64,000 bases of DNA. Origin: a plasmid. Under the pieces are notes generated by a model. That model saw nothing but the letters and a program-made list of their open reading frames with translations. It was not told the DNA's origin and searched no databases. This document shows positions 19,476 through 20,960 of the stretch, in pieces. Positions within the stretch are counted from its first letter, which is position 1; every line of letters starts with the position of its first letter. Both the position numbers and the translations under genes were made by a program. The stretch lies in NCBI RefSeq assembly GCF_053078305.1, contig NZ_CP166875.1. One strand, 5' to 3'.

Positions 19476-20960
19476 ATGCGAAAAATAATTGCTCATTTCA
19501 AGATAGTTTTAACCTTACTTTTGCCCGCAACAGTATCTGCCCAGTCGATAGAGTGGCAATCCTGTATGACCACTCCATTTAGTAACTGGTTTGGTGAGGA
19601 AAAACCGTCTCCTGACTTACTATGTGGTTATTTGTCTGTTCCATTAAAATATACAGACACAGGCGGAGATAGTTCTTCTGTAAAAAGACAGCAGGTAAAA
19701 CTGGCGCTGACAAAATTGCCAGCAAAAAGCAGGCATAAAGGGAGTATCATTATAATAAGTGGTGGACCAGGATTACCTGGCATTAATCCTTATATTAACT
19801 TTGACTGGCCGGTAACAAATCTTCGCGAATCATGGGATATTATTGGCTTTGATCCACGGGGAGTCGGCCAGTCCATTCCTGCAATAAACTGCCAGCAATC
19901 AGATACAGGGATTCAGGAAAACATAACTGAAAAGCAACGGGTATTAAATAAAATTAACAGCTGTATCCATAATACCGGAACTGAAGTTATTCGCCATATT
20001 GGTTCTAACGAGGCGGTATATGATATTGATCGTATCAGGCAAGCCCTGGGTGACGAGCAACTGACAGCTGTGGCATATTCGTATGGAACACAAATTGCAG
20101 CCTTATATGCAGAACGTTTCCCATCCAGCATCAGATCTATCGTTCTTGATGGGGTCGTCGATATTGATGACCTGGGGGACAACTTCACATGGCAACTCAA
20201 ACAAGCACAGAGTTATCAGGAAACGTTCGATCGCTTTGCATCCTGGTGTGCACGTACAAAAAGTTGCCCACTTTCTTCAGTCAGAGATAAGGCAATAACT
20301 CAGTTCCATGAGCTGTTATCAAAATTGCATCACAAGCCTTTATTAGACAGCAAGGGAGAAAATATATCTTCAGATGAACTCATATTATTAACAACAGACC
20401 TTTTGTTATGGCGTTCATCATGGCCAACCCTTGCAACTGCCATACGTCAGTTCTCTCAGGGGATTGTCAGTAATGAAATTGAAACTGCGCTCAGTACTCC
20501 TATAGCCTCAGAAGAGTCAAGTGATGCTCTGGGGGTAATCCTTTGTGTTGATCAGGGGGGGGAGCAATTAACCCCAGAAGAGCGAAAATCCCGAAAAGAC
20601 GCTCTTGCGAATGCCTTCCCGGCTATTAACTTTGACAATGGACGTTCCGATTCACCTGATTTTTGTGAATTATGGCCAATACATAGCAACCTGAATAAAA
20701 CCCGGCTGAAAAATACAGTTCTGCCCTCTGGTTTACTGTTTGTAGCACACAAATACGATCCAACAACACCATGGATTAATGCTCGTAAGATGGCAGAGAA
20801 ATTTTCCAGCCCGTTGCTGACAATAAATGGTGATGGGCATACATTAGCTCTTACCGGAGTCAATTTATGTGTAGATAAGGCCGTTGTTCGTCATCTTATC
20901 ACCCCTATGAAAATGGGAAATATATCCTGTCCAGGAAATGCTGAAATAGATATAAAATAG
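19476..20960 (+). CDS. secreted alpha/beta-hydrolase-fold peptidase (S33 tripeptidyl/prolyl aminopeptidase-like)
   Basis: Signal peptide MRKIIAHFKIVLTLLLPATVSAQS; nucleophile elbow AYSYGTQIA; 494 aa. Confidence 0.6.
   Translation: MRKIIAHFKIVLTLLLPATVSAQSIEWQSCMTTPFSNWFGEEKPSPDLLCGYLSVPLKYTDTGGDSSSVKRQQVKLALTKLPAKSRHKGSIIIISGGPGLPGINPYINFDWPVTNLRESWDIIGFDPRGVGQSIPAINCQQSDTGIQENITEKQRVLNKINSCIHNTGTEVIRHIGSNEAVYDIDRIRQALGDEQLTAVAYSYGTQIAALYAERFPSSIRSIVLDGVVDIDDLGDNFTWQLKQAQSYQETFDRFASWCARTKSCPLSSVRDKAITQFHELLSKLHHKPLLDSKGENISSDELILLTTDLLLWRSSWPTLATAIRQFSQGIVSNEIETALSTPIASEESSDALGVILCVDQGGEQLTPEERKSRKDALANAFPAINFDNGRSDSPDFCELWPIHSNLNKTRLKNTVLPSGLLFVAHKYDPTTPWINARKMAEKFSSPLLTINGDGHTLALTGVNLCVDKAVVRHLITPMKMGNISCPGNAEIDIK

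Follow-up and report, generated by a model that had tools for sequence, protein, structure and literature searches.

Omptins have been studied as virulence factors that degrade antimicrobial peptides, and they are also a nuisance in protein production. Tap, SlpD and SlpE of Streptomyces lividans (tripeptidyl peptidases, TPP, A, B and C), the founders of the 'TAP-like' domain, are mycelium-associated or secreted enzymes of a Gram-positive organism that release N-terminal tripeptides; the Streptomyces TPP enzymes and Hip1 of Mycobacterium tuberculosis are filed under peptidase family S33. Hip1 (Rv2224c, CaeA; PDB 5UGQ, 7SFM, 8E5W and 9MD7) is a cell-envelope enzyme that is 30-38% identical to Tap, SlpD and SlpE and is a proven serine protease with GroEL2 as a physiological substrate; its triad is Ser228/Asp463/His490, an S228A mutant shows that Ser228 is essential, and five disulfides are predicted (PMC4022732). 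The oxyanion hole of Hip1 consists of Gly110 and Tyr229 (PMC13041806). Here, we describe a gene located at 19476..20960 on the + strand of a 64,000-nucleotide stretch of plasmid DNA (contig NZ_CP166875.1 of assembly GCF_053078305.1; hereafter, the window). Analysis of its 494-residue product supports assignment to the Hip1/tripeptidyl-peptidase (TAP-like) branch of S33, as an apparently exported and disulfide-stabilised serine hydrolase. In many Escherichia coli genomes, relatives of this gene are found directly behind an omptin gene.

The coding sequence, for which the open reading frame (ORF) list, Pfam, homology to Hip1, the predicted fold and the substitution pattern all speak, extends from an ATG at 19476 to a TAG at 20958-20960, exactly as given in the preliminary description of the window, and is preceded by a Shine-Dalgarno-like AAGAG 5 nt before the ATG. 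This is a real gene and clearly no chance ORF, because 1676 homologs were found at E<=1e-10, an index of public assemblies contains the exact protein in 1601 blocks, and the ratio of non-synonymous to synonymous divergence (dN/dS; pairwise Nei-Gojobori) is 0.12-0.16 against seven other E. coli alleles. With respect to its nearest relatives, the window allele has a dN/dS of 0.15 at a dS of about 0.32; the gene is intact and under purifying selection. The contigs that carry the exact protein are all plasmid-sized, none exceeding 0.2 Mb.

The product matches the Pfam profiles PF00561 (Abhydrolase_1; 114.9 bits, E 6e-33, cutoff 25.8) and, at residues 386-477, PF08386 (Abhydrolase_4, 'TAP-like protein'; 52.4 bits, E 6e-14, cutoff 21), the segment that bears the Asp and His of the triad. 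The latter domain is common to the hydrolase and to Tap, SlpD and SlpE, with which the kinship is transitive, being drawn through Hip1. Among solved structures, the best sequence match is Hip1 itself (E 1.3e-50, 176 bits, query residues 19-475), only 27-30% identical, followed by the far weaker TnmK1 (E 1.6e-18), TnmK2 (E 8.6e-9) and prolyl aminopeptidases. An AlphaFold2 model built on a 32-sequence alignment has a mean predicted local distance difference test score (pLDDT) of 87 and a predicted template modelling score (pTM) of 0.87. When this model was compared with the PDB using Foldseek, the top matches were six Hip1 entries (E about 1e-33, with 3.5e-33 among the values; template modelling (TM) scores 0.77-0.81), and TnmK1 and TnmK2 came next, also over their full length (TM 0.75-0.76); every match was an alpha/beta hydrolase. 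The model contains a helical lid, residues 236-380, and superposes full-length on Hip1, the two proteins having the same lid-bearing fold.

The correspondence extends to the individual catalytic residues. Conservation was counted in an alignment of 32 homologs reaching down to 28% identity, and equivalences with Hip1 were read residue by residue from a HMMER alignment, of which the lid is the least reliable part. The codon of the nucleophile Ser202 (20079..20081, +) lies in the elbow A-Y-S-Y-G-T; the serine is present in 32/32 homologs and equals Hip1 Ser228. The first glycine of the GxSxG motif is replaced by alanine in the hydrolase (A-Y-S202-Y-G), likewise in most Gram-negative homologs. 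The catalytic acid would be Asp428 (20757..20759, +), which is found in Y-D-P-T-T-P, is kept in all 32 homologs and corresponds to Hip1 Asp463, and the base His455 (20838..20840, +), which is found in G-D-G-H-T, is kept in 31 of them and corresponds to Hip1 His490. The G96-G97-P98-G99 motif (19761..19772, +) maps to Hip1 G109-G112, its last three residues being invariant; Gly97, equivalent to Hip1 Gly110, is predicted to contribute its backbone NH to the oxyanion hole, and Tyr203 equals Hip1 Tyr229. The preliminary description had proposed a serine nucleophile elbow and an S33-type alpha/beta-hydrolase fold, and would have given up the peptidase on failure of either the family assignment or the triad; both are found here. 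Three S1-pocket residues of Hip1, Val254, Gln267 and Thr466, are also retained, as Val228, Gln243 and Thr431. Finally, each of ten cysteine columns is kept in at least 31 of the 32 homologs, and nine of the ten cysteines of the hydrolase align with cysteines of Hip1, the tenth falling outside the aligned region. This pattern suggests that the hydrolase contains five disulfides, whose formation would depend on DsbA.

The same preliminary description likened the protein to tripeptidyl or prolyl aminopeptidases. The first half of this comparison holds for the tripeptidyl/Hip1 branch; the second does not. A prolyl aminopeptidase was rejected as the identity of the protein, since the score for the NCBIfam equivalog TIGR01249 is 30.5 bits against a cutoff of 259.75 and covers only model positions 69-165 of ~307, and the fold match is poor, with Foldseek TM scores of about 0.35 (0.34-0.37). 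Prolyl aminopeptidase/proline iminopeptidase (the S33 type enzyme; PDB 1QTR, 1AZW) resembles the hydrolase in the alpha/beta core and the elbow region (residues 180-256, E 7.8e-4), but it is a cytoplasmic enzyme of ~310 residues without the TAP-like C-terminal domain or the large lid.

As far as can be read from the sequence, the protein begins with a signal peptide of 22 residues, MRKIIAHFKIVLTLLLPATVSA (19476..19541, +), followed by QSIEW. It has the three regions of a Sec-type N-terminus, with a basic n-region, a hydrophobic core (mean Kyte-Doolittle value 2.45 over residues 10-20) and V-S-A at positions -3 to -1, in keeping with the -3/-1 rule; on inspection of the N-terminus, neither a lipobox cysteine nor a twin-arginine motif is present. 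Signal peptidase I (SPase I) would cleave between Ala22 and Gln23. The conservation among homologs starts directly after this point (I-x-W-x-x-C), and the AlphaFold2 model has a low-confidence N-terminal helix at residues 4-14. In the 32-sequence alignment, A-x-A-type SPase-I signal peptides occur in all Gram-negative homologs and a lipobox cysteine in the actinobacterial ones. Both Hip1 and the E. coli protein are of the exported type, but Hip1 has a lipoprotein-type anchor, whereas the E. coli protein has an SPase-I signal peptide; it is Gram-negative, predicted to be periplasmic and carried on mobile elements. The signal peptide had been recognized before, and the protein had been called secreted; what the sequence shows is a Sec signal, which makes the periplasm the default site, and no further secretion signal that would indicate release beyond it is evident.

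The genomic setting of the close relatives in E. coli was unexpected. In a megablast search of 5426 complete E. coli genomes, a ~89%-identical hydrolase was found in about 1238 records, almost all chromosomal, and in the copies of this type that were examined the hydrolase gene is co-oriented with ompT and lies 184-186 bp downstream of it. The pair formed by ompT and the hydrolase is at least 80% covered in 1220 of the 5426 genomes, and ompT alone is found in a further ~1900. The ompT-linked examples include the chromosome of avian pathogenic E. coli (APEC) O78, O157:H7 and a ColV/PI-6-type plasmid whose ompT copy is a pseudogene. In O157:H7 strain Sakai, the ECs_1662/ECs_1663 pair is annotated inside the lambdoid prophage Sp8, at the prophage end, and in isolated lambdoid phages (2G7b, ev243, Turner and the PhiR series) the pair is located between int and the tail-fibre genes; the PHROGs family of the hydrolase, phrog_20134, has its function listed as unknown. 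ECs_1662 and the phage copies are ~90% identical to the window protein at the amino acid level, have the same length of 494 residues and have a ~1.68-kb cassette in common with the window, including the 5' leader and the 3' hairpin described below. They differ in that they follow ompT, either in lambdoid (pro)phages or on ColV-type plasmids, the window copy being a distinct allele (dS about 0.32) without an omptin. ECs_1662 is transcribed and growth-phase regulated, its signal dropping by log2 2.53 on entry into stationary phase in a microarray study, and the same expression cluster holds ECs_1662 and ompT (ECs1663) in O157:H7 (PMC2241611); the Sakai annotation confirms the identities of these two genes.

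A second, more divergent set of hydrolase alleles, 76-81% identical to the query, follows a 315-residue OmpP-type omptin at a distance of 92-128 bp in three unrelated surroundings. The classical F plasmid (NC_002483.1) is a further case, ompP being followed 104 bp later by a 76%-identical hydrolase (WP_072145210) that has the same architecture, triad and cysteines but belongs to a deeper clade (dS about 1), has an OmpP-type partner and is separated from it by a shorter spacer. Identity is 71% between OmpT and the OmpP-type omptin and 77% between the hydrolases that accompany them. Over 15 pairwise comparisons, omptin and hydrolase values of both dS and dN correlate with r about 0.97, a figure that describes matching tree shape and is no significance test, because the pairs are non-independent. 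By these distances, the omptin and hydrolase genes have co-diverged. In the F plasmid, ompP, the alpha/beta hydrolase, a tyrosine recombinase and RepB (RepFIB) are found in a row at 32322-34861; in the ColV-type plasmid pCys-11 (19489-25635), arlC, hlyF and mig-14 precede the same recombinase (WP_001066941.1) and a RepB family initiator. Since the two plasmids share this recombinase/RepB flank, two different omptin cassettes occupy one plasmid site. Identity of the hydrolase with ArlB of the arlABC cluster of adherent-invasive E. coli was ruled out, ArlB being an NAD-dependent epimerase (PMC5053483).

How the window copy relates to these pairs can be read from its borders. Local alignments, among others with the APEC chromosome, show that homology to the omptin-linked cassettes spans 19341 to about 21018. 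It begins with a conserved 5' leader of 135 bp (19341..19475, +), ~85% identical to that of the omptin-linked copies, whose first 16 nt, CATAGTTCCGGGGAGT (19341-19356, +), equal by alignment and folding the loop end plus the 3' arm of the hairpin found after ompT. Chromosomal ompT has this stable hairpin, CTCCCCGG...CCGGGGAG (-21.1 kcal/mol, z -3.2), behind its stop codon; in the window, the equivalent structure does not form, the 5' arm and ompT being gone. The cassette ends with a conserved hairpin (20979..21018, +; -21.4 kcal/mol, z -2.9) situated 19 nt past the hydrolase stop codon, which may be a terminator or a stabiliser; it has no clear U-tract and was not called by a terminator scan. 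By dS, the window allele is closer to the OmpT-linked clade (about 0.32) than to the OmpP-linked one (about 1.0). All this would be explained most simply by descent of the window allele from an ompT-linked ancestor, with loss of the omptin through a breakpoint in the terminator. The window gene is an orphan derivative and falls outside the module as we define it, that is, a hydrolase gene 90-190 bp behind a co-oriented omptin gene.

Taken as a whole, we regard it as fairly probable that the gene encodes an exported Hip1-type S33 peptidase, which is the hydrolase half of an omptin-hydrolase module and has been orphaned on this plasmid. The pre-protein would be exported through Sec and cleaved after Ala22, and the mature enzyme, of 472 residues, about 52 kDa and a pI of about 5.8, would fold in the oxidising periplasm with five disulfides. 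It would consist of an alpha/beta-hydrolase core, a large helical lid and the TAP-like C-terminal segment, following the Hip1 architecture. Ser202 would be activated by His455 and Asp428, and the oxyanion would be held by the backbone NH groups of Tyr203 and Gly97. Short or unfolded peptides are the likeliest substrates, and esterase activity would be possible too. The two-gene module would be carried by lambdoid phages and F-type plasmids of E. coli; in the lineage of the present plasmid, the omptin would have been lost by recombination in the ompT terminator, and the hydrolase kept alone under purifying selection in a small block of genes.

It is tempting to go one step further and to propose that the omptin and the TAP-like hydrolase work together as a two-step proteolytic system, which lambdoid phages and F-type plasmids would have spread, although we put this forward only as a tentative possibility. 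The surface omptin would cut cationic peptides or proteins of the host, and the S33 enzyme in the periplasm would finish the fragments, for the purpose of detoxification or nutrition; the orphan plasmid copy would then supply the second step in trans to chromosomal OmpT. The role in virulence or nutrient acquisition envisaged in the preliminary description may exist, the one line of evidence for it being the association of the hydrolase with omptins, prophage cargo regions and pathotype plasmids.

Several observations weigh against the interpretation of the gene as the peptidase half of an omptin module. With respect to chemistry, the fold does not dictate peptide substrates, because TnmK1 and TnmK2 (TM 0.76) are deposited as biosynthetic enzymes, and Hip1 also hydrolyses esters. 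The near-absolute preference of Hip1 for lysine at P2 is due to Glu113 in an environment formed by Arg374, Arg388, Tyr342 and Tyr372 (PMC13041806). This S2 pocket is not kept in the hydrolase, where Glu113 is replaced by Leu100, Glu117 by Asn104, Tyr342 by Leu311, Tyr372 by Glu336, Arg374 by Ala338 and Arg388 by Leu352. Since the residues that select lysine in Hip1 are replaced, the P2/subsite specificity of the hydrolase probably differs from that of Hip1; the specificity pocket is Hip1's own trait and not that of the family, and its loss is no argument against membership. No experimental characterisation of the hydrolase or of any Gram-negative ortholog, be it enzymatic, by localisation or by mutation, was found in the open-access literature, a weak negative; beyond the microarray table with ECs1662, that literature gave only uninformative mentions (PMC4606577; a machine-learning feature list). 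With respect to regulation, a stable hairpin separates ompT from the hydrolase gene, so that the pair may or may not be co-transcribed. No promoter was recognised in the 135-bp leader of the window copy, which is devoid of a sigma-70 consensus, the counts for this region equalling the shuffled expectation. Omptin promoters are reported to be PhoP-dependent (bioRxiv 10.1101/2020.02.28.965145), and no PhoP box was matched upstream of the hydrolase at up to two mismatches. With respect to linkage, no omptin motif is present anywhere in the 64,000-nt window, the upstream neighbour of the hydrolase encoding a DUF2251 protein. The third E. coli omptin, ArlC, is without a hydrolase partner, being followed by hlyF, which encodes a short-chain dehydrogenase/reductase, and mig-14. 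An omptin neighbour is likewise absent at the ~40-55%-identical homologs of Salmonella, a Serratia plasmid, Budvicia, S. marcescens, Pseudomonas and Chromobacterium, and in two Serratia fonticola sequences (3185-5476 and 1961-4252) a 42%-identical homolog is located directly downstream of an Ail/Lom-family barrel gene. Because the omptin is absent at the window, at the homologs outside E. coli and at arlC, the linkage may reflect co-transfer as prophage cargo instead of a joint function.

The last point leads to the alternative that has to be taken most seriously, namely, that the adjacency is an accident of linkage between co-travelling but independent cargo genes of lambdoid phages and F plasmids and that the function of the hydrolase is unrelated to omptins. 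We see about an even chance that this is so. The pair resides in the non-essential int-to-tail-fibre region of lambdoid phages, homologs outside E. coli do without omptins, one of them following Ail/Lom at a prophage end, and the downstream partners of arlC differ; the strong hairpin between ompT and the hydrolase and the persistence of the window allele on its own, under the same purifying selection, point the same way. Nevertheless, the adjacency has outlasted deep divergence, omptins that are 71% identical being paired with hydrolases that are 77% identical and that differ by a dS of about 1. The pairing was seen in at least five different surroundings, on chromosomes as well as plasmids, and the two genes belong to one expression cluster in O157:H7. 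In S. fonticola, the Ail/Lom and hydrolase genes come just after prophage tail genes, an arrangement parallel to the omptin pairing in E. coli.

The surroundings of the more distant homologs were also considered as a clue to the substrate. In S. marcescens (5001-8356), a homolog with 44% identity, belonging to an 837-member cluster, is followed by genes for a family-5 solute-binding protein (oligopeptide/dipeptide type), mgtE and an MgtS-like small protein. This locus hints at peptide handling and at Mg2+/PhoPQ-linked surroundings, as a single observation. Conserved peptide-transporter neighbours were discarded as a substrate clue, being found in S. marcescens only and not in Pseudomonas, Chromobacterium, Budvicia or S. 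fonticola.

Alternatively, the enzyme might in the main be a carboxylesterase or lipase of the periplasm, with small esters, lactones or compounds derived from lipids as substrates, and not a peptidase, which strikes us as rather unlikely. Esterases and peptidases are inseparable by the alpha/beta-hydrolase triad; Hip1 has been deposited as 'Carboxylesterase A' and hydrolyses p-nitrophenyl butyrate (PMC4022732). Since Hip1 cleaves both peptides and esters, an esterase side of the E. coli enzyme is possible. Annotations of orthologs point in the same direction ('putative lactone hydrolase' in phages 2G7b and ev243, 'pimeloyl-ACP methyl ester carboxylesterase'), but these esterase and lactonase names are automatic. 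Against this alternative, the closest characterised relative, Hip1, is a demonstrated protease with a physiological protein substrate, and the tripeptidyl-peptidase branch is defined by the TAP-like C-terminal domain, which the hydrolase possesses; the family-5 (oligopeptide-type) binding protein behind the S. marcescens homolog is a further argument, albeit a single case. Judged by homology, peptidase rather than esterase activity would be expected of the hydrolase.

A contribution to anti-phage defence, either as part of a defence system or as an accessory to one, is very improbable. The PADLOC model PDLC01094, 'C3a206 (TAP-like protein)', does match the hydrolase (2.4e-53), but its 180 bits are no better than the 176 bits obtained with Hip1, and the match therefore reflects family-level homology. 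The gene has a prokaryotic viperin (pVip) operon at a distance of 1.9 kb and adjoins a RelE/Phd toxin-antitoxin pair, and its orthologs are cargo of prophages, a frequent site of defence genes. Neither the pVip operon nor any other defence partner is constant, however, among the inspected contexts of the exact protein, and an enzyme that is exported to the periplasm and held by disulfides would hardly be expected to sense, or act on, a phage infection inside the cell. Least probable of all is the use of the Hip1-like fold for non-hydrolytic small-molecule chemistry, as suggested by the full-length structural matches to TnmK1 and TnmK2, given that the sequence similarity to these proteins is much weaker than that to Hip1, that a biosynthetic gene cluster is absent around the gene in every context examined, and that the hydrolase carries an export signal and strictly conserves the Ser-Asp-His triad and oxyanion motif.

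The window as a whole belongs to an IncFII, F-type conjugative plasmid with several colicins. The preliminary description had placed the gene in an accessory region, which agrees with its low G+C content (42.2%, and 34.9% at third codon positions, against 48.8% for the window) and with the compositionally mosaic character of the surrounding stretch. Positions 15467-28608 are 99.4% identical to pFHI_NMBU_11_02 (NZ_CP045714.1), where the hydrolase (WP_001563271.1) is annotated merely as "alpha/beta hydrolase"; other parts are rearranged or more divergent. The window departs from NZ_CP045714.1, the complete plasmid closest to it, at 28609..32394, 36653..41549 and 1..15466: it has an insert of ~3.8 kb (28609-32394) at a junction that is continuous in NZ_CP045714.1, a replacement of the colicin V region of that plasmid, and a rearrangement of its own first 15 kb, where the repA region is found at 5959-9092.

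Within this mosaic, the hydrolase belongs to a mini-block of five genes. Upstream, and on the same strand, are the genes for a Phd/YefM antitoxin (18060..18311, +) and a RelE toxin (18308..18595, +), identified as ORFs and from the annotation of the 99.8%-identical plasmid, and for the DUF2251 protein (18760..19167, +), an ORF with a match to Pfam DUF2251; downstream is a convergent ProQ/FinO-family gene (21208..21789, -; Pfam ProQ, 9.7e-12). The Phd-RelE-DUF2251-hydrolase-ProQ/FinO block is constant in 8/8 inspected contigs carrying the exact protein; what lies outside it varies, one flank holding either a viperin operon or an esterase and the opposite flank either a lipid-type operon or a YadA-like adhesin. 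We take these neighbours as context and claim no functional link. In pCys-11, Phd-RelE-DUF2251 occurs without the hydrolase, adjoining a truncated colicin gene near the IncFII repA.

Beyond the block, at 15578..17575 (-), 1.9 kb upstream of the hydrolase, a three-gene operon encodes a radical-SAM protein of 288 residues, which matches PADLOC pVip, 'viperins associated with kinases', at E 1.6e-30, together with a deoxynucleoside-kinase-like protein that matches VakA weakly and a NudI/Nudix hydrolase (PDC-S07, 5e-17); it is likely a prokaryotic viperin anti-phage system. On the other side, a second alpha/beta hydrolase is encoded near the hydrolase gene at 22635..24395 (-), in the form of a 586-residue fusion of an S33-type 'Hydrolase_4' with Methyltransf_20. 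This gene heads or ends a plasmid operon on the - strand, extending to about 27000, that includes a drug/metabolite transporter (DMT) and has been annotated as containing a lysophospholipid acyltransferase, a phosphatidate cytidylyltransferase and a frameshifted CDP-alcohol phosphatidyltransferase; a phospholipid-type pathway of this kind is unusual on a plasmid. An 11-bp tandem repeat, (A/T)(T/G)TTTACTTGC, is present in about 3.5 copies at 22023..22061 (+), in the interval that separates the ProQ/FinO-like gene from the 3' end of this operon. It yields two overlapping perfect PhoP-box matches (TGTTTA-N5-TGTTTA, 22034-22061), the only perfect ones in the window, and lies in a small ORF whose counterpart in the reference plasmid is a frameshifted pseudogene.

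As a gene, the hydrolase described here is ordinary, because its family is known and had been guessed correctly beforehand, and because it is already generically annotated in thousands of genomes. Its pairing with omptins, of which no description was found in the open-access literature (again a weak negative), is a modest yet concrete lead for work on OmpT, OmpP and resistance to antimicrobial peptides. About a fifth of complete E. coli genomes put the hydrolase directly behind an omptin, and so do O157:H7, inducible lambdoid phages and the F plasmid. An unrecognised exported peptidase that travels with omptins could affect the reading of omptin mutant phenotypes. If the two-step system were real, OmpT and OmpP, including those of enterohaemorrhagic E. 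coli O157:H7 and of the classical F plasmid, would gain a previously unrecognised partner enzyme. The hydrolase would also be the first member of the Hip1 branch to be characterised from a Gram-negative organism; the mycobacterial member of this branch is a drug target.

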